A DNA stretch of 12,264 nt, taken from the IMG/VR virus record IMGVR_UViG_2537561977_000026, positions 1-12,264 of that record; one strand, written 5' to 3'. This DNA comes from a virus. Its lineage: Duplodnaviria > Heunggongvirae > Uroviricota > Caudoviricetes. Shown here piece by piece: positions 1-12,264 of the stretch (position 1 is the first letter of the stretch; the number at the start of each line of letters is the position of its first letter). The notes under the pieces are model-generated. The model saw nothing but the letters and a program-made list of their open reading frames with translations, was not told where the DNA came from and ran no database searches. The position numbers and the translations under genes are program-made.

Positions 1-1233
1 ATGGCACGAAAAACCACCCCACTAACTATTACGGAGATCAAAAACGCACGACCAGGGGAAAAGGAATATACCCTGCAGGATGGCGGAGGATTATTTCTTC
101 TGGTGAAGCCCTCCGGATCAAAAATCTGGCGTTTTACGTACTACCGCCCGGCAGATAAAAACGGACTATTATCAGCCTTGGATCGCTAAATGATGTTTCC
201 CTGTCTGAGGCCAGAGAGCGACGGAATGAATACAGGTCACTCATAGCAAAGGGAACTGACCCACAGGACTACGAACGCCGGAAACGTGAAGCAGAGAGCA
301 GGAAAAAGGGCAACACGTTCGAAAAAGTTGCCTCGGACTGGTACGAGATGAAAAAAGGCCAGAATCTGGCTTACAACACGATTAAGGATATCTGGCGATC
401 CCTGGAAAAATACGTATTCCCGTACATCGGAAACACGCCAATAGATACCCTCACCGCTCGCCGCTTTGTTGAGATACTCACACCCATTAAAGCACGCGGC
501 AACCTGGAAACTCTGAAACGCGTTTTACAACGCATCAATGAAGTGATGGATTTTGCTGCCAACAGTGGGCTGATTGACATCAACACCGCCGCGAACGTCC
601 GCAAGGCATTCCCTTCCCCCACTAAAAAGCATATGCCAACCATCCGACCGGAACAGCTACCGCAGCTAATGCACGATTTATCGGTCGCCAGCATAGAACG
701 GCAAACCAGATTGCTAATCGAGTGGCAACTGCTGACCGTAGCACGCCCAGCCGAAGCAGCCGCCGCACGCTGGGAAGAAATAGATCTCGATGCCGAAACA
801 TGGACGATTCCTGCCGGACGCATGAAGATGCGCCGTGACCATGTGATCCCTCTTTGCGGTCAGGCGATAGCTGTACTGGAAACAATGAAGCCAATCAGCG
901 CACACAGGGAACATGTTTTTCCCAGCCTTAAAAATCCAATGCTGCCAATGAGCAGCCAGACCGCTAACGCTGCATTGCGCCGGATGGGATACGCTGGTGT
1001 CTCACGGATTACGCGCCATATTCAGTACAGCAGCGAACGAGGAAGGATTCGAGCCGGACGTAATCGAGGCCGCACTCGCACACGTGGACACGAACGAGGT
1101 AAGGCGAGCATATAACCGAAGTAACTACCTGGAAAAGCGCGTGGTGCTTATGCGCTGGTGGGGTGAATTTGTGGAGGCTGCCGCAACCGGAGTGACCATA
1201 GCCAGCGGTAAAAGGGGTATCCGTGCCGTGTAA
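1..1233 (+). pseudogene. int: P4-family tyrosine integrase, reading frame broken twice
   Basis: Three collinear ORF pieces (1..189 frame 1; ~162..1115 frame 3; 997..1233 frame 1) together reproduce a full P4/CP4-57-type integrase: N-terminal MARKT.PLT..EIKNA arm-binding region, core IRPEQLPQLM / WQLLTVARPAEA / WTIPAGRMKMRRDHVIPL, C-terminal SHGLR...VIEAALAHVDTNEVRRAYNRSNYLEKR. Frame switches map to an A5 run (156-160) and a G3 run (986-988). Confidence 0.85.
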
Positions 1234-1331
1234 CTGTACAAAAAGCCAGTACAACCAGTGAAAACCATGCCAAACCATCGTATAATTGCCACAAATTTAA
1301 CGACAAGGCCGGAGTATATGAAAATTCTATT

Positions 1332-1562
1332 ATGCAAAATACCACCGCCTACGGCGAAGGCCTGCAACTGGCCTTAATGGCAAATCGTGAATTCTGGTCA
1401 ACATACGATCCAGAAGACAAAACGACAGCCCCCACAAAACACGAGGTAGTCAGTTTTTTGCGCTCGCGTGGTGCATCGAAAAATCTGGCTGAAAGCATCG
1501 ACAAGGTGCTGAGGCCCACCAGCCTTAAATGCGGTGGGCGACCTAAGAAGTGGAAACGGTAA
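1332..1562 (+). CDS. hypothetical small protein (76 aa) between int and alpA
   Basis: ORF in the int-alpA gap, followed by a hairpin terminator. No recognisable family; the nearest SD-like GGAG is 17 nt upstream, so weak. A 19-codon ORF from ATG 1318 has a better SD. Confidence 0.3.
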   Translation: MQNTTAYGEGLQLALMANREFWSTYDPEDKTTAPTKHEVVSFLRSRGASKNLAESIDKVLRPTSLKCGGRPKKWKR

Positions 1563-1569
1563 TCACAAT

Positions 1570-1597
1570 AGCGGCCCTTTGCGGTCGCTATTTTTTT
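1570..1597 (+). terminator. rho-independent terminator
   Basis: Hairpin AGCGGCC-CTTTGC-GGTCGCT (7 bp stem including one G-U) followed by A then T7 (1591-1597). Confidence 0.55.
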
Positions 1598-1632
1598 GCA
1601 GAAAGAAAAGCGTAATCAATGAGATAAAAAAC

Positions 1633-1667
1633 AGTGGGTACCGTTTTAAAACGGTGGGTACTGTTTT
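1633..1667. promoter_or_regulatory. candidate operator upstream of alpA: perfect 16-bp palindrome inside a 15-bp direct repeat pair
   Basis: ACCGTTTTAAAACGGT (1640-1655) is a perfect palindrome. AGTGGGTACCGTTTT (1633-1647) and GGTGGGTACTGTTTT (1653-1667) are near-identical direct repeats. Lies ~70 bp upstream of the alpA start. Confidence 0.4.
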
Positions 1668-1732
1668 TCCCGCCCTGCCCTGTTTTACCGTATTTATCAC
1701 CGGAATACGCCGGATTAACGAGGTAAAACATA

Positions 1733-1938
1733 GTGGAAACAATCAGAAAAATACTTACCCGTCAGGAAGTAAAAATATTCTGCGCATCAAGGCAGACAGT
1801 TCGCTACAGGACATGATCAACGCCGGAAAATTCCCGAAAGGCTTCAAAATCGGTCTGCGCCGTGTTGGCTGGTATGAAGATGAGGTGCTGGCCTGGCTGA
1901 AAGAGCGCGAGGAAGAAGCGCGCGGAACGGCTGCTTAA
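1733..1938 (+). pseudogene. alpA: AlpA-family phage transcriptional regulator (helix-turn-helix), apparent -1 frameshift in an A5 run
   Basis: GTG 1733 preceded by GAGG gives VETIRKILTRQEVK in frame 2. Frame 1 downstream gives ILRIKADSSLQDMINAGKFPKGFKIGLRRVGWYEDEVLAWLKER, matching the AlpA pattern (EV...SRSTIY..I..G.FP.P.KLG.R.VGW.E.EV..WL). Restoring A6 at 1771-1775 joins them into one ~69-aa protein. Confidence 0.6.
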
Positions 1939-1964
1939 CGGGTATCACAGATATGACAAACACG

Positions 1965-1997
1965 AAAAAAGCGGCCCCGATATGGAGCCGCCTTTCT
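1965..1997. terminator. possible bidirectional terminator between convergent alpA and minus-strand genes
   Basis: A6 (1965-1970), GCGGC (1971-1975), 11-nt loop, GCCGC (1987-1991), then CTTTCT. Short stem, so weak. Confidence 0.3.
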
Positions 1998-2086
1998 GAA
2001 CAATTAACCAGCTGCGCCTTATGTGTATATGATCCCAAACATAAGCACGGGGATGATAGCCGCTATCAGGCTGGTGGGCAATGCAA

Positions 2087-2275
2087 TCAGTCTGGTTCAG
2101 TTCGTTGCCATACCTGCAATGAGCGCTTTTCCCTGTACTCTTTAAGGAATTGCTCAAGGGCAAAAGCACATGGCGCGAATCTTTCTGATTCATGCTCTAT
2201 CTTTCTGCGCCGTCTTTTCCGTGCCGGTGATAATGTTTTGGTCAATTCTTTATCGGTCATTGTGTTGTCCTGCAT
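2087..2275 (-). CDS. hypothetical small basic protein (62 aa)
   Basis: Minus-strand ORF 43 nt downstream of the RHH regulator gene; K/R-rich (ARKRRRRK). No strong SD and no family recognised. Confidence 0.25.
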   Translation of the reverse strand: MQDNTMTDKELTKTLSPARKRRRRKIEHESERFAPCAFALEQFLKEYREKRSLQVWQRTEPD

Positions 2276-2317
2276 AGCAATGCGCCGTAATACCTTACAC
2301 CACGGCGCTGATGGTGA

Positions 2318-2623
2318 TTACTCTGGTTCTTTGGTCTTGCGACGCTGGAGTTCTTCGCGTGCAACGGTGACAAGCTGCCCGATTTCTTCCGCTGCTTTGA
2401 TGCCGATTTGTTCGACCTTAGCCAGGGCATCCAGTGACGACACAAGGGGATTTTCTCCGCTGCCTTCTGCTTGGCGGCGAGCTATTTCTCCGCGCATGGC
2501 GGTTACGATAAATCCGGCATTGCTTTCGCCGTCCAGCTTAACGGATTCCATCCCTTGCATAACATCTAGTGGGACTCTGACAGTTGTCAGTTGTGATTTT
2601 GCGTTTTTGTTAGCCGTTGCCAT
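2318..2623 (-). CDS. putative ribbon-helix-helix (Arc/CopG-like) DNA-binding regulator
   Basis: The only convincing minus-strand gene. AGGAG lies 8 nt before the ATG. The TTVRVPLDVMQGMESVKLDGESNAGFIVTAMRGEIARR segment resembles the Arc repressor beta-strand plus helix (compare FNLRWPREVLDLVRKVAEENGRSVNSEIYQRVMESF). Divergent from the primase operon. Confidence 0.55.
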   Translation of the reverse strand: MATANKNAKSQLTTVRVPLDVMQGMESVKLDGESNAGFIVTAMRGEIARRQAEGSGENPLVSSLDALAKVEQIGIKAAEEIGQLVTVAREELQRRKTKEPE

Positions 2624-2815
2624 TTCTGAAACTCCTAATCATCGGTGTGTTTCAGTATACACAAAAAAGAAATACAAAAAGCCTTGACGTGTGTTTCATG
2701 CGCTCATAACATGAAGCACACCGAAAGGATTGTTGAAATACAAAGAGCAACGCCCCGCAGTGCCGGAAACACATACGGGGCGTCTAACCACAAACACTAT
2801 AGAGAGGAAAAATTT
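2624..2815. promoter_or_regulatory. divergent control region between the RHH regulator and the Icd-like/primase operon
   Basis: Candidate sigma70 promoter: -35 TTGACG (2684-2689), 17-bp spacer, -10 TAACAT (2707-2712). GTGTGTTTCA direct repeat at 2645-2654 and 2689-2698. GC-rich hairpin ACGCCCCG (2750-2757) / CGGGGCGT (2776-2783) in the leader. Confidence 0.4.
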
Positions 2816-3013
2816 ATGGTTGCTGTAAATCATATACCACACCTTGTACACACACAAACGGCCTTTGTGTGGCGTTTTCTGGCCCTGAGTGCCGGAGAAT
2901 CTCAAATCATCCACGTAACCGCCTGGACGGAACGCGAAGCGCGTAGCCGTTGCCCGTACGGTTGTGTTGCTGTGTTCGCCGCCCGTATTCGCCAGGAGGT
3001 GAGTCATGCATAA
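2816..3013 (+). CDS. Icd-like small protein (Icd/Ash-family pattern)
   Basis: ATG 2816 preceded by AGAGGAAAA. MVAVNHIPHLVHTQTAFVWRFLALSAGESQIIHVTAWTEREARSRCPYGCVAVFAARIRQEVSHA fits the small Icd-like proteins usually found just upstream of P4-type primase genes. The track ORF 2645..3013 carries an N-terminal extension that is probably not translated. Confidence 0.5.
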   Translation: MVAVNHIPHLVHTQTAFVWRFLALSAGESQIIHVTAWTEREARSRCPYGCVAVFAARIRQEVSHA

Positions 3014-3233
3014 AATACCTTTTGATGTTCTTATTCATTCTGAGAATGCATTAATCCGCGCAAAGGAAATGGAGGCATTATTACTTAAGTTAATGGAAGT
3101 GCCGGAAAATGGCGATGAATCATATCCCATGATGTTTTCTGCCGTGCACACATTATTAACGCCAGTAATTAACGAATTAAATACGGTGATGGCAATTCAC
3201 GAGAATAATAAAGCGCATCACACCGGAGAATAA
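3006..3233 (+). CDS. hypothetical protein (75 aa)
   Basis: Strong SD AGGAGGTG; start overlaps the upstream stop (ATGCATAA), suggesting translational coupling within the operon. Confidence 0.5.
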   Translation: MHKIPFDVLIHSENALIRAKEMEALLLKLMEVPENGDESYPMMFSAVHTLLTPVINELNTVMAIHENNKAHHTGE

Positions 3234-3238
3234 AAACC

Positions 3239-3526
3239 ATGAAAAAGAAAAATTCTGGCTTTACTGTCAGCGGCCCCGCTCGGCCTGAAATCCGCCCCGG
3301 CGATATTTTCAAAGATAACTACGGCGGCACGATAACGATAAAAGACGTGGAAGAACGGCGCATCACCTACCGCCGTGAAGGCTACGACTATGACTGCGTG
3401 ATGCCTGTTTATCAGTTCCGGCGTGATTTTAAGCTGGTGGGCCATCGTAAAGCCGTAAATCAGAAACGTGCAGCAAGCTATATCCGCAAAATCCGTGAAA
3501 TGCTGGTCGCAGGGGGTAAAAAATGA
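3239..3526 (+). CDS. hypothetical protein (95 aa)
   Basis: SD GGAGAA; its stop overlaps the primase start (ATGA). Basic C-terminus. No family recognised. Confidence 0.5.
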   Translation: MKKKNSGFTVSGPARPEIRPGDIFKDNYGGTITIKDVEERRITYRREGYDYDCVMPVYQFRRDFKLVGHRKAVNQKRAASYIRKIREMLVAGGKK

Positions 3527-4258
3527 AACTGGCACCGAACGTAAAACAGCAGTCACGCGGCATAAAACACAAAGAAACAGAAGTCATTATTTTTGCGGGT
3601 AGTGATGCCTGGTCACACGCAAAACAATGGCAGGAACATGACGCGCGTATGGCCGGAGATAATGAGCCTCCTGTGTGGCTTGGGGAGCAGCAGTTATCCG
3701 AACTGGATAAGCTGCAAATTGTGCCGGAAGGCAGAAAATCCGTGCGCATATTCAAGGCCGGATATCTTGCGCCAGTAATGATAAAGGCGATTGGTCAGAA
3801 GCTGGCGGCGGCAGGCGTACAGGATGCAAATTTTTATCCTGAGGGTATGCACTGCCAGGAGGTGCAGAACTGGCGCGAATATCTGGCCCGTGAACGCCAG
3901 AATCTTTCTGATGGTCTGGTTATTGAGCTTCCGGTAAAGCAAAAAATGCAGCTTTCGCAGATGGCGGACAGTGAGCGCGCGCAGCTGCTTGCCGATCGCT
4001 TTGATGGCGTTTGTGTGCATCCAGAAAGTGAAATCGTTCACGTATGGCGCGGCGGGGTATGGTGTCCGGTCAGCACAATGGAACTTAGCCGCGAAATGGT
4101 GGCGATCTATTCAGAGCACAGGGCCACTTTCAGCAAGCGCGTAATCAATAACGCCGTGGAAGCATTAAAAGTTATTGCCCAGCCAATGGGGGAGCCGTCC
4201 GGCGATTTGTTGCCGTTCGCCAATGGTGCGCTTGACCTGAAAACGGGGGAATTTTCCC

Positions 4259-5552
4259 CTGAGGAATCCCCAGAAAACAAGACAGGCATAGTGAGATGTG
4301 ATCTAATTGATTGTGCTAACAATTTCAAGGAGATCACCACTATGCCTGCACGTTCATTATGCCAAAATTTCCTTAACAACATACTGGCCCCTTTGCATCT
4401 TTACCGTCAAAAATCACTGATTGACGCAACTAATGCTGTAATAAATGGCGCTTCCCTCACACTTACCAGTATCGGGCGTCATTTAACCGGTACGGCATCA
4501 GTTAAAAACAAAATAAAGCGGGTGGATCGACTGTTGGGGAATCGACATTTGCAAAATGAGGTTTCCACCATTTTTCAGCGAATTACCCAAAAGATTACGC
4601 GGGGAATGTCTCGTGTTGTGATACTCATTGACTGGAGTGCTTATCATGCCTCTCGTTTTCAGCTTTTGCGGGCAAGCCTGGCATGTGACGGGCGTTCTTT
4701 ACCGTTGATGAGTTGTGTCGTTCCATCATCACAGACAGCGAATGCAGATGTACATGAGCGTTTTCTGGAATCGCTTGCTGAGTGCTTTTCCCCCGGGACT
4801 GATGTCATTGTTATTACAGATGCCGGTTTTCAGGGGCGATGGTTCCAACAGCTCCGCTCCCGTGGCTGGACCTATATTTGCCGGGTACTGGGCAATCATT
4901 ATTACAATGTTGGTAATGGCTGGGAAAAGGTGTCGGACTCAGGCACAAAAGCATCAACGACAGCAATTTATTTAGGTGAAGGCCTGCTGGGTCGAGATAA
5001 AAATGCACAACATGAAGGGCATTTTTATCTTTATAAAAGTAAGCCTAAAGGTCGTAGATTTAAACGCTCGAAGGAAAGAGCAACCAGACCATCGGTGACG
5101 GCTAAAGCTCGTACTGCCGGGAAATCACCATGGTTTATTTTCACAAACAGTACTGAGTTCTCGCCAAAACAGGTAATGAAATTATACAGCCGTAGAATGC
5201 AAATTGAGCAAAATTTCAGGGATGAAAAAAATCCTCGCTGGGGATTTGGACTACGGTTTGGTGCCAGTCATTCATCCGGGCGGGTCACGGTATTGAGTCT
5301 GATCGCAACATTAGCCAGTATCATTATGTGGTTAAGCGGTTTCAGCCTGGAAAACAAAGGGATACATCATAAATATCAGGCAAATACAGTGAAGCACAGG
5401 CGAGTCATCTCGTTATTAAAACTGGCGGAGAATGTGATTCGACATTCTCCACTCATACTAAACACACTGTCACTTGACGCAGGGCTGAAAGTTCTACAGC
5501 AACGGTATACCAATATGATAATGGTTTACTAAATTTTCTGGGGATCCCTCAG
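4259..5552 (+). mobile_element. IS4-family (IS10-like) insertion sequence, ~1.29 kb
   Basis: Terminal inverted repeats CTGAGGAATCCCCAGAAAAC (4259-4278) and complement of ATTTTCTGGGGATCCCTCAG (5533-5552), 18/20 match. Flanked by direct repeat GGAATTTTCCC (4248-4258 and 5553-5563), consistent with a target-site duplication. Confidence 0.85.
4342..5532 (+). CDS. IS4-family (IS10-like) DDE transposase
   Basis: 396 aa, collinear with IS10 transposase: IKRVDRLLGNRHL, LIDWS, ITDAGF, YSRRMQIEQNFRD, QANTVKHRRV. In the track it appears fused in frame to the primase N-fragment (ORF 3523..5532). Confidence 0.85.
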   Translation: MPARSLCQNFLNNILAPLHLYRQKSLIDATNAVINGASLTLTSIGRHLTGTASVKNKIKRVDRLLGNRHLQNEVSTIFQRITQKITRGMSRVVILIDWSAYHASRFQLLRASLACDGRSLPLMSCVVPSSQTANADVHERFLESLAECFSPGTDVIVITDAGFQGRWFQQLRSRGWTYICRVLGNHYYNVGNGWEKVSDSGTKASTTAIYLGEGLLGRDKNAQHEGHFYLYKSKPKGRRFKRSKERATRPSVTAKARTAGKSPWFIFTNSTEFSPKQVMKLYSRRMQIEQNFRDEKNPRWGFGLRFGASHSSGRVTVLSLIATLASIIMWLSGFSLENKGIHHKYQANTVKHRRVISLLKLAENVIRHSPLILNTLSLDAGLKVLQQRYTNMIMVY

Positions 5553-5974
5553 GGAATTTTCCCCGCACACGCCGGAGAACTGGATCACCACGCACAACGG
5601 CATTGAGTACACGGCACCAGCACCAGGGGAGAACATCCGCGACAACGCTCCAAACTTTCATAAATGGCTTGATCACGCTGCCGGAAAAGATCCGGGCAAG
5701 ATGATGCGTATATGCGCCGCGCTATACATGATTATGGCGAACCGGTACGACTGGCAGATGTTTATTGAGGCCACCGGAGACGGCGGGAGCGGCAAGAGCA
5801 CTTTCACGCACATAGCCAGCCTTCTGGCAGGGAAACAGAACACAGTAAGGCAGTATGACTTTCCGTGAGACAGATGCTGGCCAACGTGGGATATTTAACG
5901 CGGGTTAACATCGTTGTCAGAGCCGCATGGGTGAGCTGTTGCTACACCCCGGTATTTCCACCACGGAGGCCAGC

Positions 5975-7102
5975 ATGAACAACAATAACACATTGTACGT
6001 CGGGTTAGATGTTCACAAAGAATCGATTACTGTCGCTTATGCTATCAATTCAGAACCTGTTGAACTGATGGGTAAAATTGGCACATCACCTACTGATATT
6101 CAGAATCTTTGTAAACGTCTCAGGTCAAAGTCATCGCAGGTCAGTATCGTTTATGAAGCGGGGCCCTGTGGTTATGGACTTTATCGTCGGCTGGTGAAAT
6201 CCGGTTTTGACTGCATGGTCTGCGCCCCCTCACTTATCCCGAAAAAACCGGGGGAGCGGGTTAAAACCGATCGCCGTGATGCCATCAGACTTGTGCGTTC
6301 ACTGCGTGCAGGAGATCTTTCTGCTGTCTACGTACCCGGCATTGAAGATGAGGCATTCCGGGATTTGGCCCGGGCATGGGCATCTGCCCGCGATGATTTA
6401 CGGCATGCAAGGCAACGTCTGAAATCGTTTCTTCTGGTTCATGGGGTCCATTATGTCGGGCGAGCAGATTGGGGCCCTGCACACCGACGCTGGCTCAGCA
6501 AATACTCATTCGAAAGTCCCTGGCGACAATTAGCTTTTGACGAACACCGTCGTACAATAGAAGACCGGCAGGCACAATGTGAACGGCTGGAATCCGCCCT
6601 GAAGGAGGCCGTTACCGAATGGAGGCTGTATCCGGTAGTAGAGGCGCTGCAAGCCATGCGAGGGATTCAGTTTATTACTGCGGTTGGATTAATTTCTGAA
6701 CTGGGTGATCTGACCCGTTTTGAACATCCACGACAACTGATGTCATGGTTTGGTATCACGCCATCAGAATATTCATCGGGTGGAAGCAGACATCAGGGCA
6801 GCATTACCAAAGCCGGAAACAGCTATGCCAGAAAGCTATTGGTCGAGGCAGCGTGGAGTTACCGTCATCCGGCACGCATCAGTCCGGCAATACAAAAAAG
6901 GCAGGAAAATTTACCCCGCCCCGTCATTGACAGAGCATGGGATGCTCAACTCAGGCTTTGTAAGAGGTATCGAAAACTTCAGGCCAAAGGAAAGAATGTC
7001 AATATTACAATTGTTGCTGTTGCACGTGAGCTGGCGGGTTTTATCTGGGATATGGGCCGAATAGCAATGTCTGTCGCACAACAACCACAATGTCACAAAT
7101 AA
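5975..7102 (+). CDS. IS110-family (DEDD) transposase
   Basis: GGAGG 5 nt before ATG 5975. N-terminal LYVGLDVHKESITVA and C-terminal LQAMRGIQFITAVGLISELGDLTRFEHPRQLMSWFGITPSEYSSGGSRHQGSITKAGNSYARKLLVEAAW are IS110/IS116/IS902-type motifs. The track ORF starts at 5927 but 5975 has the SD. Confidence 0.85.
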   Translation: MNNNNTLYVGLDVHKESITVAYAINSEPVELMGKIGTSPTDIQNLCKRLRSKSSQVSIVYEAGPCGYGLYRRLVKSGFDCMVCAPSLIPKKPGERVKTDRRDAIRLVRSLRAGDLSAVYVPGIEDEAFRDLARAWASARDDLRHARQRLKSFLLVHGVHYVGRADWGPAHRRWLSKYSFESPWRQLAFDEHRRTIEDRQAQCERLESALKEAVTEWRLYPVVEALQAMRGIQFITAVGLISELGDLTRFEHPRQLMSWFGITPSEYSSGGSRHQGSITKAGNSYARKLLVEAAWSYRHPARISPAIQKRQENLPRPVIDRAWDAQLRLCKRYRKLQAKGKNVNITIVAVARELAGFIWDMGRIAMSVAQQPQCHK

Positions 7103-7118
7103 AAAATGAGAATAACCA

Positions 7119-7307
7119 GTTCCCTGAAGGCGACGTAGCCCGGTACAAGAGTAACCCACGTTAGCGCTTGGCGACGGCGGAACAAAGCTGATTCGCGACG
7201 TAAGAAAGTGGCAGGCTCATATGACGGACCTCTGTAATGCGGTATCCAACCCGCGAATATCAGCGTGATTCACCGTCGGATTTACTGCTACGTCGCCCTC
7301 AGGGAAT
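7119..7307 (+). ncRNA. candidate bridge/seek RNA of the IS110-family element
   Basis: 19-nt inverted repeat TCCCTGAAGGCGACGTAGC (7121-7139) / GCTACGTCGCCCTCAGGGA (7287-7305), 18/19 pairs, extendable by 2 bp, enclosing ~147 nt. Internal ATATCAGCG (7257-7265) is identical to the IS-end/flank junction at 7363-7371; AGCGCT (7163-7168) matches the right flank. Confidence 0.3.
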
Positions 7308-8116
7308 TAAACCTAAAAAGAAAATCGTCAAAATTAGAGATTCCGGTTTGACACGGAAAGTCATATCAGCGCTGAGATGACATCGCTTGATGATGCTGGT
7401 GGGCGTGCACAGGTTGTCGGGAGTCGTCTTATCGTCCTGGCAGACCAGCCGAAATATACAGGCGAAGGAACGGGCATCAAGAAAATCACGGGCGGCGACC
7501 CCGTGGAAATTAACCCGAAATATGAAAAGCGTTTTACGGCGGTAATCAGGGCGGTGGTGCTGGCAACCAATAACAATCCGATGATATTCACCGAACGGGC
7601 CGGAGGCGTGGCACGTCGTCGCGTGATTTTCCGTTTCGACAATATCGTCAACGAGGCCGAAAAAGACAGGGAACTACCGGAAAAGATTGCGGCTGAAATC
7701 CCCGTCATTATCCGCCGATTACTGGCGAACTTTGCAGACCCTGAAAAGGCGCGGGCTTTACTACTGGAACAGCGTGACGGTGATGAAGCACTGGCGATAA
7801 AGCAGCAAACGGATCCGGTTATTGAGTTTTGCCAGTTCCTGAATTTTCTGGAGGAAGCACGTGGCCTGATGATGGGTGGCGGTGGCGATTCCGTGAAGTA
7901 CACGACCAGAAACAGCCTTTACCGCGTCTATCTGGCGTTTATGGCATACGCAGGCAGAACCAAACCACTAAACGTAAATGACTTTGGCAAGGCCATGAAG
8001 CCAGCCGCAAAAGTTTACGGACATGAATATATTACGCGAAAAATTAATGGAGTGACGCAGACTAACGCAATAACAACCGACGATTGCGACGCGTTTTTAT
8101 AATTTTTGGCAATTGC

Positions 8117-8333
8117 TGTCTACCTGATTACATAAAAGTTGTTTTAATTCAGTGTATTAATTTAGGTAGACAGCTTTTTTTACTGTCTACAAGCTGTCTA
8201 CCTTGTCTACCTGTTTTTGTAGCCAGTCGGAGGGATGGGTAGACATCAGGTAGACAGAGATTTTTTACTGTCTACCACCATAAAACCCGCGTCATTACTA
8301 GCCTGAGCATCCACCAGGTAGATAAGGTAGACA
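8117..8333. repeat. iteron array, candidate replication origin (P4 ori/crr analogue)
   Basis: Octamer TGTCTACC at 8117-8124, 8195-8202, 8204-8211, 8269-8276. Complement GGTAGACA at 8165-8172, 8238-8245, 8249-8256, 8326-8333. Variants at 8184-8191 and 8317-8324. Two palindromic units GTAGACAG-N9/10-CTGTCTAC (8166-8190, 8250-8275). AT-rich spacers. Directly downstream of the primase gene. Confidence 0.6.
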
Positions 8334-8382
8334 AGGTGGGGGTATCTCCAAAACTTTTTAAACGAGGGGGGTAAAAACAAAA

Positions 8383-8640
8383 ATGCACACATCAGGAAAA
8401 CTTAACAATCAGAAGAAGCAACATAACCGCGCCATTGACCTTACAGAGCACTGGCTGAGGGTGGCGATAAAAATCATCGACCGCAACGCGGGAGAAGGAT
8501 ACGCGAAAGCACATCCTGAACTGATAAGCGCATTCATGACCACGGCGGCAGCAAACTTTGCCACGCTGACAGAGCGGGAGATTGCCGAAGCGGAACAGGT
8601 GACAACCATCAACGTTAAAACCGGAGAGCAGACAGCATGA
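8383..8640 (+). CDS. hypothetical protein (85 aa)
   Basis: SD GAGGGGGG before ATG 8383; its stop overlaps the next start (ATGA at 8637). No family recognised. Confidence 0.5.
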   Translation: MHTSGKLNNQKKQHNRAIDLTEHWLRVAIKIIDRNAGEGYAKAHPELISAFMTTAAANFATLTEREIAEAEQVTTINVKTGEQTA

Positions 8641-9020
8641 CAGCACAGATAGCGGCTTACGGGCGGCTGGTGGCTGACCCGCAGTTAAAGACCACCAGCA
8701 AAGGGACACAAATGGCGATGGCGAGTATGGCGGTTCCCCTGCCGTGCAGCCAGGCAGATGACGGAACGGCGACGATGTGGTTATCCGTCCTGGCGTTTGG
8801 CAGACAGGCCGACGCACTGGCAAAGCACCACAAAGGCGAACTGGTGAGCGTGGCGGGTAACATGCAGGTAAGCCAGTGGACAGACCAGAACGGCGAAACG
8901 CGGCAGGGCTGGCAGGTCATCGCAGACAGCGTAATCAGTGCGCGAACGGCGCGACCGGGCGGCAGCCGACGCAAAACCACAGGCACACAGGGTAATCAGC
9001 CACCAGCGGGAGTACGGTGA
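8637..9020 (+). CDS. SSB-like OB-fold protein lacking the acidic C-terminal tail
   Basis: Collinear with E. coli SSB: IAAYGRLVADPQLK vs ILVGNLGQDPEVRY; TMWLSVLAFGRQADALAKHHKGELVSVAGNMQVSQWTDQNGETR vs [45 protein letters not shown]. Ends ...GNQPPAGVR with no DDDIPF-type tail. Confidence 0.6.
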   Translation: MTAQIAAYGRLVADPQLKTTSKGTQMAMASMAVPLPCSQADDGTATMWLSVLAFGRQADALAKHHKGELVSVAGNMQVSQWTDQNGETRQGWQVIADSVISARTARPGGSRRKTTGTQGNQPPAGVR

Positions 9021-9319
9021 TGATATTCCGTTCTGAGGGGGTGAGGATGGTACATGACCGCATAGCGGAGGAACTCGAAGCGAAAGGCTTTTACCGGAGG
9101 GCGTCGGCGCGATGGGGTGAAGTCATGCAGCTGGTGGAGACAGACAAAGAACGGCATCAGGTTACGATGCGACGGCTGGAATGTTCCAGGAAGGCACAGA
9201 GGCCACCGGAGCCGCCGGATAACTTAGGAGACCTGAAAAAAGCAGTAGATCGCACTTATGCCGAAATGGGTATGGGTGGTGCTGGTGATGAAATATGGCG
9301 CAATTACCAGGACAGCTAA
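9017..9319 (+). CDS. PerC/ANR-like small transcriptional regulator
   Basis: EELEAKGFYRRASARWGEVMQLVETDKERHQVTMRRLEC follows the PerC/ANR pattern (LE..G.WRRA..W......ETDEER......R..C). The start may instead be ATG 9046, which has a GAGGGGGTGAGG SD. Confidence 0.45.
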   Translation: MMIFRSEGVRMVHDRIAEELEAKGFYRRASARWGEVMQLVETDKERHQVTMRRLECSRKAQRPPEPPDNLGDLKKAVDRTYAEMGMGGAGDEIWRNYQDS

Positions 9320-9325
9320 TCACAC

Positions 9326-9348
9326 AGCCGGAGGAATCCGGCTTTTTT
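9326..9348 (+). terminator. rho-independent terminator
   Basis: AGCCGGA-GGAA-TCCGGCT hairpin followed by T6. Confidence 0.6.
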
Positions 9349-9354
9349 ACGCCT

Positions 9355-9396
9355 AAAAAAGCCCGATAAGGCCAGAGGAGTCTTATCGGGCTTTTT
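9355..9396. terminator. rho-independent terminator, probably bidirectional
   Basis: A6, then perfect 10-bp stem GCCCGATAAG (9361-9370) / CTTATCGGGC (9382-9391) with an 11-nt loop, then T5. Confidence 0.6.
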
Positions 9397-9476
9397 CATA
9401 TGAGGCTTTTATCTAACAGCATGGTGACTACTGTTGCCGGAAATCATTTCATAATTTGCAACACAAATCAATATTA

Positions 9477-9504
9477 TTGCACAAAATGCAATCATGATTA
9501 TAAT
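9477..9504 (+). promoter_or_regulatory. near-consensus sigma70 promoter for the head-gene operon
   Basis: -35 TTGCAC (9477-9482), 16-bp spacer, -10 TATAAT (9499-9504), in an AT-rich region with repeated TTGCA/TGCAA motifs. ~55 bp upstream of orf68. Confidence 0.5.
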
Positions 9505-9560
9505 CATAACTGGATGTTCATACAGTTATGATTTTTTAAGTCAAAGAGGAATTTCTGACT

Positions 9561-9767
9561 ATGGCAGAAGAGAAAAAAGGTGGGGTTACAGTCTACATAA
9601 GCCCCGACATTGTGGAGGCACTCAAGGAACGCCACCAGCAGAACGTAAAAGCGAGCATTGCGGCAGGACTTGATCCGCTGGCAATGGTTGAGCCGTCAAC
9701 AGGCTGGCAGGTGCGCGCCTATTTACGTGCGGCGTTGGGCATGAATCAGACTCATGGGGGTGAATAA
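9561..9767 (+). CDS. hypothetical protein (68 aa), first gene of head operon
   Basis: SD AGAGGA before ATG 9561; stop overlaps the capsid gene start (TAATG). Confidence 0.5.
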   Translation: MAEEKKGGVTVYISPDIVEALKERHQQNVKASIAAGLDPLAMVEPSTGWQVRAYLRAALGMNQTHGGE

Positions 9768-10821
9768 TGGCAGGTAAAGCAACGGCTCTTAACACTAACC
9801 AGCTTTTCGCGTACCTGAATCGTGGTGATATTGCTGAATTTAAATTCAGTCCGCTGTTTACCACGCTGTTTTTCCCGAACGTGGCGACATTCAGCACCCA
9901 GAACATCATGCTGGATACCCTGGACATTGAAGAAGTCACCATGTCAGCGTTTTGTTCGCCTATGGTGGGTAGTCAGGTCCAGCGCGATAAAGGGTACGAA
10001 ACCAGCACGATTAAACCTGGCTACATGAAGCCAAAGCACGAAATCGATCCAACAAAAACCATTATGCGCATGGCTGGAGAAGATCCGGCACAGCTTAACG
10101 ACCCTACATACCGCCGTATGCGTCTGATTACTGGCAACATGCGCCGCCAGGTCAACGCCATTAAAGCGCGCGTCGAATGGCTGGCGGTGAATGCGGTCAC
10201 GACCGGAAAAACATCATTGAGGGCGAAGGCATAGAACGCTATGAAATTGACTGGAAGATACCGGAAAGCAATATCATAGTGCAGGTCAAAGGCTGTAAAT
10301 GGTCTGAACAGGACAAAGAAACACACGATCCAATCTATGACATCGAGCTTTATGCGGATCAGGGCAGTTGCCCCGCCAACGTCATGATTATGGGCGCTGA
10401 TGTATGGCGCACGTTACGCAGCTTTAAAAAATTCCGCGAGCTGTACGATCTTTCCCGTGGTTCAGAATCCGCCGCCGAACTGGCGTGTAAAAACCTGGGC
10501 GAAGTGGTGAGCTTTAAAGGCTATCTGGGCGATATTGCCCTTATCGTCTATTCCGGCAAATACGCCGACAGCGACGGCACCGAAAAATATTTCCTTGAGC
10601 CTGATTTGCTTGTCCTGGGCAACACCAACAATAAAGGGCTGGTGGCCTATGGTGCGATTATGGATCAGGACGCAGTAAGAACGGGCGCAACGCAAAACAT
10701 GTTTTACCCGAAAAACTGGATTGAGGACGGCGATCCGGCGATTGAGTACGTGCAGACGCACAGCGCACCGCAGCCGGTTCCGGCAGATATTCGCAAATTT
10801 GTTACCGTCAAAATTGGTTAA
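9767..10821 (+). pseudogene. lambda gpE-type major capsid protein, -1 frameshift in an A5 run
   Basis: ORFs 9767..10234 (frame 2) and 10177..10821 (frame 1) together are collinear with lambda E: FKFSPLF..LFF, IKPGYMKPKHEIDP, DPTYRRMRLITGNMRRQVNAIKARVEWLAVNAVTTGK, then DPIYDIELYA...SRGSESAAELACKNLGEVVSFKGYLGDIALIVYSGKY...LVLGNTNNKGLVAYGAIMDQDA...FYPKNWIEDGDPAIEY. Restoring A6 at 10206-10210 gives one ~352-aa ORF. Confidence 0.85.
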
Positions 10822-10832
10822 CGGGGGATTCT

Positions 10833-11168
10833 ATGGACACTCCATACATTGAGTTATTTGCAGGCAGTCAGCAGGTCGCCACGACGCTGGTACATTTTGC
10901 CGCTGATGCTGGCGTTATTCAGGAATTTACCCCGCTGATGCTGGCGGACAATGGCGAGTTTAAGCCGTGGGATGGTAAGGAATCTGGCAAGGCTGTTTAT
11001 CTGACCTCGTACCCTGTGGACACGTCAGAGCAGAAATCAGCACAGTGTTACAAGACGGGGATATTCAATATTGCTGCCGTTAATTGGCCTGAGAGCGTCG
11101 ACACCGACGCGAAAAAATGCGCCGCCTTTGCGGGTTCTGGCGTATCCGTTCAGCCGCTGGCCCGATAA
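10833..11168 (+). CDS. lambda gpD-like head decoration protein
   Basis: SD GGGGGA. TPLMLADNGEFKPWDG...CYKTGIFNIAAVNWPESVDTDAKKCAAFAGSGVSV matches lambda D (TPLMLDTSSRKLVAWDG...[36 protein letters not shown]). Confidence 0.7.
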   Translation: MDTPYIELFAGSQQVATTLVHFAADAGVIQEFTPLMLADNGEFKPWDGKESGKAVYLTSYPVDTSEQKSAQCYKTGIFNIAAVNWPESVDTDAKKCAAFAGSGVSVQPLAR

Positions 11169-11180
11169 GCAGGGGGAACG

Positions 11181-11552
11181 ATGGCAACGAATGAAAGCAT
11201 CATGACGCTACCGCTGGCGAGTAAATTTAAAGCCGAAGCGCGGGCAATGGCTGACAGAGGGTTATCAACCTACGAGGCCATATATCAACTTAACAAACTG
11301 GAAGAGCAGGACAAGCCGCGCGCTGATGCGATTATGGCGCTTGATGAATCTGGCGACTATCAGCCGCTGTTACGTGCAATGGCAAACGTGCCTTGTATCG
11401 ATGTTGGTACGGCCAAAAGCATTCTTAGCATGACCATAGAGCAGGAACGCCAGAAGGTTGCACCAGAGCTTACCGCAGCCTTTGAAAACTTTATGGACAT
11501 GCACAGCCCGAAAGCCGTATCAGCTGGCATGGCATACGATAGCAGAAACTAG
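11181..11552 (+). CDS. hypothetical protein (123 aa), head-operon associated
   Basis: Strong SD AGGGGGAA; tightly spaced after the D-like gene; followed by a terminator. No family recognised. Confidence 0.55.
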   Translation: MATNESIMTLPLASKFKAEARAMADRGLSTYEAIYQLNKLEEQDKPRADAIMALDESGDYQPLLRAMANVPCIDVGTAKSILSMTIEQERQKVAPELTAAFENFMDMHSPKAVSAGMAYDSRN

Positions 11553-11600
11553 GGCGATGACGGCGACATCGATCGCATACTGAAAACCATCTGAGACAAG

Positions 11601-11622
11601 GCCGGAGAAATCCGGCTTTTTT
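11601..11622 (+). terminator. rho-independent terminator, same module as 9326-9348
   Basis: GCCGGA-GAAA-TCCGGC followed by T6; 24/25 identical to the terminator at 9326-9350. Confidence 0.6.
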
Positions 11623-11704
11623 ACGGGGCCTTTCCGGCATATGGACCCGTTACGGGGCGGGAGCGGCGCAGAATTTCACTATTTATGAAAATTTTTCGGA
11701 AACC

Positions 11705-11802
11705 ATGTCCGGTTTTTCTTGGAGTTAACTCTTTGAAAAATATAAAAATTCACTTTCTGTGAACCGGACGTGCGCAAAAATTGAACACTCAAACCGGACA
11801 TA
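11705..11802. promoter_or_regulatory. candidate regulated promoter with three ACCGGAC boxes
   Basis: -35 TTGGAG (11719-11724), 16-bp spacer, -10 TATAAA (11741-11746). Box AAACCGGACATG in reverse at 11705-11716 and forward at 11761-11772 (GAACCGGACGTG) and 11791-11802 (AAACCGGACATA). Confidence 0.35.
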
Positions 11803-11964
11803 TATGCCGCGTTTCATAAAGTTGTTCGCAAGATGCATGTTTAAAACGCATGAGGGGAGATTTTTTGGCGAGGTGAACAGTGGCTACTCAGACTGAAGTT
11901 GCCAGGCATTTGAGTCTGACCGATCGCCAGCTTCGCAGATTACAGAAATTGTTCCCCCATCACT

Positions 11965-12264
11965 ATGGAGACCATAACCATGACCGACGCCGAACTACTG
12001 AAAGTAATCCGCCGTATTACCGGAATCAGTCAGGCAACAGGCAAACAGGTGGCCACGCAGCCGGACAGCGTGACAGCCGAAAACTATGCGCGTGTTGTTG
12101 CTGAGGTTATGCGCCGTGACGGTATTGAGCTTAACGGCGTGGATATGCGCAACATACGAACCAGAGTCCTTGAGTTGCTGGCATACCGTCGCCGTTCTCA
12201 ACAACGGAGGGAGAGCATGAAAAATACTTACCAGTGGAAGAAGCCGGAACGGTTGCGGCGGTAG
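11965..12264 (+). CDS. hypothetical protein (99 aa; alternative start ATG 11980)
   Basis: ORF reaching the window end with a stop at 12262-12264. ATG 11980 has GGAGA 8 nt upstream. Function unknown; could begin a packaging module continuing beyond the window. Confidence 0.45.
   Translation: METITMTDAELLKVIRRITGISQATGKQVATQPDSVTAENYARVVAEVMRRDGIELNGVDMRNIRTRVLELLAYRRRSQQRRESMKNTYQWKKPERLRR

Follow-up and report, generated by a model that had tools for sequence, protein, structure and literature searches.

The question raised by this locus is whether the frameshifts that break the integrase (int), alpA, and capsid genes of a phage-satellite island in Escherichia coli reflect genuine decay of the element or errors of the assembly in which it was deposited. 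The window analysed here is the whole stretch of 12,264 nucleotides (IMG/VR record IMGVR_UViG_2537561977_000026), and exact look-ups of the products of its broken open reading frames (ORFs) returned a sole matching record, the E. coli LT-68 draft contig ADUP01000047.1 (GCA_000188815.2), where it occupies positions 70140–82403. The window is a defective copy of an EcCICFT073-type phage-inducible chromosomal island (PICI) of the Gram-negative kind, and it begins at the integrase start codon, with tRNA-Pro just upstream and yejM and yejO on either side. A preliminary description, made from the sequence alone, had placed every frameshift in a homopolymer run and had set out sequencing error and slipped-strand mutation as alternatives, without choosing between them. 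Three of the four real frame breaks do lie in such runs, the fourth is an 8-bp deletion, and three of the five sites that had been named were right. Sequencing error holds for the three A-runs, and real decay for the second int break, though not as a change of a G-run. The three A5 frameshifts are very probably base-calling undercalls in the LT-68 draft assembly, with true runs of A6, atop a PICI that is truly defective.

For comparison, exact look-ups with the head decoration protein and with the 76-aa protein of the island recovered the same haplotype at 99.7–99.95% identity in nine independent datasets (the complete genome CP065611.1, UFYN01000002.1, AATFOA01, AATFNZ01, AATFNX01, and Logan SRR13627075, SRR2994196, SRR13627092, and SRR23544681), all from isolates other than LT-68. 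The LT-68 query consisted of two segments joined to 31.2 kb (contig 60140–91307), and was aligned to all comparators. Substitutions and contractions were polarised with all loci over 29.8 kb, run lengths were counted directly in each fetched locus (4–16 loci per site), and more distant islands (87–96% identity) were also used for the three genic A-run sites. SRR23544681 was rejected as sole witness for the int A-run, since it has odd short-run indels of its own, and CP065611.1 and 11 other loci were added. In that dataset ssb has T4 in place of T3 at 8796, the capsid gene has C3 in place of C4 at 10371, and a T7 replaces T6 at 9343; whether as real lesions or as run errors, these private indels leave both ssb and the capsid gene split. 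Coordinates count from the first base of the window, and features given with start and end are on the plus strand, except for the iteron field, which has no strand assigned.

The integrase gene (1..1233, 413 aa if intact) runs here through frames 1, 3, and 1, and its first break falls in an A5 run at 157..161 that is A6 in all 13 other covering loci; the preliminary description had recognised this break but placed it one base low, at 156–160. Once repaired, the integrase gives a full-length match to NF007246 (E 2.5e-166) and is near-identical to the intact 413-aa integrase of VL7S7. The PICI activator gene alpA (1733..1938, 68 aa if intact, PF05930 on the relatives' protein) is broken at an A5 run at 1771..1775, exactly where it had been reported, and this run is A6 in all 16 other loci. 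The gene for a lambda gpE-like major capsid protein (9767..10821, 351 aa if intact, PF03864) is broken at an A5 run at 10207..10211, previously given as 10206–10210, with A6 in all 14 other loci. Each of these three runs is judged an LT-68 undercall. The proposal that one extra A repairs each break was borne out, insertion of one A producing an AlpA (68 aa) and a capsid protein (351 aa) identical to those of CP065611.1. All nine same-haplotype datasets have the longer run at every site that each covers, and the three genic sites read A6 in the distant islands too. An inherited pseudogene is expected to show its lesion in independent assemblies of related isolates, and this was seen for the 8-bp int deletion but for none of the three A-runs. 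For the capsid gene, two A5-specific 48-mers had 0 matches in complete E. coli genomes, where an A6 control matched 36 records, and among 598 homologous hits in complete E. coli genomes (every listed hit spanning the 49 bp) there was no exact or one-mismatch A5 match.

The same evidence bears on the idea that the runs have a function as slippery sites, be it in phase variation (contingency tracts) or in programmed transcriptional or translational frameshifting. While the breaks do fall in A runs, and A-rich heptamers can slip, A6 is invariant over 12–16 loci and hundreds of complete genomes with no length polymorphism, and with A6 the genes are plain uninterrupted ORFs, so that this explanation is scarcely credible. 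Runs of A5 or A6 are also far shorter than known contingency tracts. It is also barely conceivable that LT-68 is correct and the comparators were overcalled. Comparators are not free of oddities, as seen in the private A8 of CP065611.1 at window position −7 and the three short-run indels of SRR23544681, but the nine datasets come from different projects and evidently different platforms, mutually agree, and match divergent outgroups, and their run lengths yield intact AlpA, capsid, and CcmH proteins.

Contractions of this kind are not confined to the three genes. The preliminary description had missed two more runs in the window that differ in LT-68 only, namely a T7 run at 8175..8181, intergenic in the origin region, which is T8 in all 9 comparators and is judged an LT-68 undercall, and an A6 run at 2663..2668, also intergenic, which is A7 in CP065611.1 and UFYN01 and is a probable undercall, with one comparator lineage covering the site. 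Downstream of the window, LT-68 has A5 at 13257 and T6 at 13279 in intergenic DNA (A6 and T7 in the others), and T6 at 17339 and T5 at 17760 in ccmH (T7 and T6 in the others). The short form is private to LT-68 at eight sites, with 2663 as a probable ninth. The A8/A7 difference at window position −7 was considered as a further undercall and rejected, all other loci having A7 and the A8 being private to CP065611.1.

The true length of the runs that are short in LT-68 is 6–8, all are A or T, and all changes are contractions. Sorted by true length, 0/91 A/T runs of 5, 5/40 of 6, 3/5 of 7, and 1/3 of 8 were miscalled (about 19% per A/T run of at least 6), and G/C runs of at least 4 showed 0/119. 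Alignment to AATFNZ01 (8,401 bp) gave 0 substitutions and 4 gaps, and alignment to AATFOA01 (13,795 bp) gave 1 substitution and 6 gaps, every gap in both being an A/T run short in LT-68. Private changes of LT-68 over the 29.8 kb amount to at most 1 substitution (window position −203) versus 8–9 contractions, and its remaining substitutions are common to another assembly or derived in the comparator. All LT-68-specific 1-bp differences fall within runs; the other indels are 8-bp and 9-bp repeat-unit changes, shared with other assemblies.

The suggested check of other genes in the assembly for homopolymer frameshifts was positive for the core gene ccmH, which is split twice by T-run deficits into 96-, 138-, and 124-aa pieces in LT-68 only, and is intact at 350 aa in every comparator. 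With one T added at each of the two runs, which are 421 bp apart, the 350-aa CcmH matches that of AATFOA01 exactly. The short runs are thus private to LT-68, length-dependent, and A/T-only, and repair yields proteins that match sister assemblies exactly. Since these private A/T-run undercalls also affect intergenic DNA and ccmH, with essentially no accompanying substitutions, sequencing error is strongly supported for the three A-runs.

Under genuine decay, slipped-strand mispairing in LT-68 itself would have shortened the A6 runs of three genes (int, alpA, and capsid) by 1 bp each once the island had been immobilised, making all three true pseudogenes. Relaxed selection on alpA and the capsid gene is indeed expected in an island that is already dead (two insertion sequences (IS) in the primase gene, the 8-bp slippage in int, the truncated small-terminase gene terS, and a nonsense codon), homopolymers are natural slippage hot spots, and another lineage has a similar capsid fragment of 155 aa. 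Decay is nevertheless distinctly unlikely, as private contractions are also found in intergenic runs and twice in ccmH, private indels far exceed private substitutions, all 8–9 changes are contractions with 0 expansions, and none was found in any other assembly of the same haplotype. In E. coli mutation accumulation, substitutions exceed small indels about tenfold in the wild type and several-fold in mismatch-repair mutants. Because this excess of substitutions holds even in mismatch-repair mutants, a mutator does not rescue real slippage. An LT-68 hypermutator with a bias toward homopolymer contraction (through a mismatch-repair or polymerase defect), in which the run changes would be real and genome-wide, could account for changes that span island, intergenic, and core DNA and depend on run length, but it should also have left many private transitions, where at most one private substitution is seen, and two ccmH knock-outs within 421 bp and one-directional changes better fit a signal-calling bias; we regard it as extremely improbable. 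Taken over all sites, it is very unlikely that the short A/T runs are real in LT-68, which would mean a burst of about 9 one-directional contractions per 30 kb and hardly any substitutions. If they were, the mutational process would have to be an unusual one, perhaps a defect in replication or repair that specifically contracts A/T runs, and it would have disabled both island genes and core genes, ccmH among them.

The undercalls themselves would be explained if a flow-based (454-type) signal for 6–8 identical A or T bases was read one base short, and if each undercall persisted into the consensus, producing an artificial frameshift. A series of such undercalls would then run along the contig, at 157, 1771, probably 2663, 8175, 10207, 13257, 13279, 17339, and 17760, alongside genuine lesions of the lineage, which comprise the int 8-bp deletion by replication slippage between tandem copies of GCTGGTGT, two IS, the terS truncation, and the TAG at 11550. 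Assemblies from 454 data are known to contain false frameshifts where homopolymers were misread, more often in A/T runs and in longer ones (PMC3277595), and LT-68 resembles them in its one-base, homopolymer-confined length errors, its bias to A/T and longer runs, and the split genes in its consensus. It differs in its high per-run rate and in that every firm error is an undercall. What we infer here is the platform used and the cause at the level of reads.

Several points weigh against this account. The LT-68 sequencing platform was not found in the literature, where one paper merely lists the strain, as enterotoxigenic E. coli, and 454 is proposed from the error pattern and from what we take to be the era of the accession series. 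The errors are unevenly spread, with 0/10 long runs miscalled in the upstream 8.7 kb of core genes, a count that is compatible with the pooled 19% per-run rate (P about 0.12). One difference has the opposite direction, a C4 run at the left IS junction (4256..4259) being longer in LT-68 than the C3 of CP065611.1 and UFYN01. The 155-aa capsid fragment mentioned above (DEC3F EHU94871.1, VDG84109.1; 11 contigs) belongs to another allele with 3 aa differences and has the same frameshifted tail (...TTGKTSLRAKA), which implies an A6-to-A5 change in other assemblies too, whether by recurrent miscall or by genuine recurrent slippage. Finally, since none of the comparators is LT-68 itself, real mutations private to that strain are formally possible.

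The second int break is a lesion of another kind. It had been ascribed to the G3 run at 986..988, but this run is the same in all relatives, and the lesion lies 5 bp downstream of it, where relatives have GCTGGTGTGCTGGTGT and the window has one GCTGGTGT, the single remaining copy at 993..1000, its tandem second copy having been lost (−8 bp). Deletion of one G restores the frame arithmetically, and G3 was rejected as the lesion on the alignment, which shows loss of an 8-bp repeat unit. Two copies are present in 13 other loci, and the one-copy allele in LT-68, CP065611.1, and SRR23544681; the 350-aa integrase called in UFYN01 fits with it. Since two independent assemblies also carry the loss, the deletion is real. 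It resembles slipped-strand deletion between short tandem repeats, in that exactly one unit of a perfect 8-bp duplication (GCTGGTGT GCTGGTGT) is lost and the loss is inherited by several isolates, and it differs from the site first proposed in being neither a homopolymer event nor located at the G3 run. The C-terminal int ORF (997–1233) is back in frame 1 because the −1 and −8 changes sum to −9. With the A-run alone repaired, int encodes 371 aa, with about 40 aberrant C-terminal residues and without the HGLR...H...Y catalytic tail. CP065611.1 and SRR23544681 have, in addition, a C-to-T change at 1050 that creates TGA in the shifted frame, giving a truncated integrase of 350 aa versus 371 aa in LT-68.

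The preliminary description had held that the reading of the runs decides whether int, alpA, and the capsid gene are functional. Since the 8-bp deletion removes the catalytic C-terminus (HxxR...Y), int is non-functional under either reading of its A-run, and the ORFs of alpA and of the capsid gene are most likely intact.

A C5 run at 11954..11958 had been tentatively proposed to join a helix-turn-helix-like ORF with a GTG start at 11880 to the ORF at 11965, and this was rejected as a frameshift site. The run is identical in relatives, homology to terS ends at 11951, and the conserved terminal 94-aa gene of the island (11980..12264) is intact and free-standing in all relatives; over window 11701–11990, five independent assemblies show 100% identity, and VL7S7 and O121 align without gaps. 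The putative ORF is the 5' remnant of a lambdoid small-terminase gene (terS, 11880..11951), 24 codons long with the rest deleted. Window 11851–11951 (the remnant and 29 bp upstream) is about 91–92% identical to terS 5' ends in most of 1,766 matching records, and the remnant is annotated as "incomplete; missing C-terminus" by the NCBI pipeline in VL7S7, O121, and FDAARGOS_943. The terS match in lambdoid prophages, for example in EDL933, lies beside genes for terL, portal, S49 protease, gpD-like, and gpE-like proteins. This suggests a satellite terS that was acquired from, or mimics, helper phages.

Further genuine lesions were found in the replication module. The P4-family primase/replicase gene (pri-rep, 3523..8102, D5_N and TIGR01613 hits) is cut into three pieces by two IS, and the pieces (3523–4259, 5552–5849, and 7368–8102) align to the intact primase of Nissle. 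The first insertion is an IS4-family (IS10-like) element at 4260..5551 (NF033591, E 3.6e-107), with boundaries approximate to 1–2 bp, junctions and duplicated target seen; it is also present in CP065611.1 and UFYN01. The extra C at 4256–4259 fuses the N-terminal primase piece in frame with the transposase in LT-68, producing a 669-aa ORF (3523–5532, EFZ57495), where other assemblies (C3) have separate 255-aa and 396-aa ORFs, and the target duplication does not decide which C-run length is correct. The second insertion is ISSso6 (IS110 family) at 5850..7367 (NF033542), with a transposase identical to that of S. sonnei Ss046, and it lies at the identical primase position in LT-68, CP065611.1, UFYN01, VL7S7, and O121 201805972. 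In VL7S7 and O121 201805972, the flanking island DNA is about 95–97% identical to the window, yet the IS and the adjacent primase pieces show 0 mismatches. Such identity of ISSso6 amid diverged flanks points to a mosaic or recombinant history of the island.

On the 3' side of pri-rep, an iteron field at 8110..8335 contains T-rich tracts surrounded by about 10 copies of TGTCTACC(T), some in each orientation, and is likely the replication origin, judging by its repeats; the placement of PICI origins has been described (PMC6092414). Isolates differ in whether they carry a 9-bp iteron unit at 8117, a real polymorphism common to several assemblies. Among the genes for virion components, the gpD-like head decoration protein gene (10833..11168, PF02924) is intact, with the exact protein in 16 contigs. 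The next gene (11181..11552) encodes a connector-like protein of 123 aa; other haplotypes have a 137-aa version, annotated as a head-tail connector. It ends at a TAG at 11550–11552, a codon that is CAG elsewhere and is absent from the earlier list of lesions, with T in four other independent assemblies and C in 8 other loci. This pattern marks the TAG as a real C-to-T nonsense polymorphism.

Gene order in the island runs from int through the 76-aa gene, alpA, small regulators, a DUF4222 gene, and the P4-family primase to the iteron field, and continues with ssb, a PerC-like gene, the gpE-like capsid gene, the gpD-like decoration gene, the connector-like gene, the terS remnant, and the 94-aa gene. 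In all relatives, the island lies directly downstream of tRNA-Pro in the yejM/yejO interval, and same-site islands occur in many E. coli strains (Nissle 1917 at 87% nucleotide identity, VL7S7 and O121 201805972 at about 96%). EcCICFT073 PICIs encode int, alpA, and pri-rep with the origin downstream, followed by the capsid homologue c1499 and the decoration homologue c1500, and AlpA is the activator needed for their induction (PMC6092414). The window agrees with this arrangement in its int/alpA/pri-rep module and iteron origin, with int and pri-rep disrupted here, in its capsid (PF03864) and head-decoration (PF02924) homologues downstream of the replication module, and in its integration beside a tRNA gene. 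It differs in having the primase cut by the IS10-like element and ISSso6, the 8-bp int deletion, a terS of 24 codons, and a nonsense codon in the connector-like gene. Given the broken int and primase, the island is predicted to be immobile.

For use of the deposited data, the LT-68 fragments of int, AlpA, capsid, and CcmH (e.g. EFZ57486, EFZ57487, and EFZ57502) should be left out of pseudogene counts, and statistics on pseudogenes or island decay drawn from this assembly would be inflated, by roughly one false indel per 3 kb in the region. The value of the result is mainly one of data hygiene, in that it flags the quality of an old draft assembly and clarifies which lesions of the island are true. 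Current knowledge is not challenged. The three A-run frameshifts are almost certainly miscalls, and the original observation is mostly artefact in an ordinary, already degraded phage-satellite island. As read from its genes, the island itself appears genuinely immobilised, by the 8-bp deletion in int, the two IS insertions in the primase gene, and the truncated terS.

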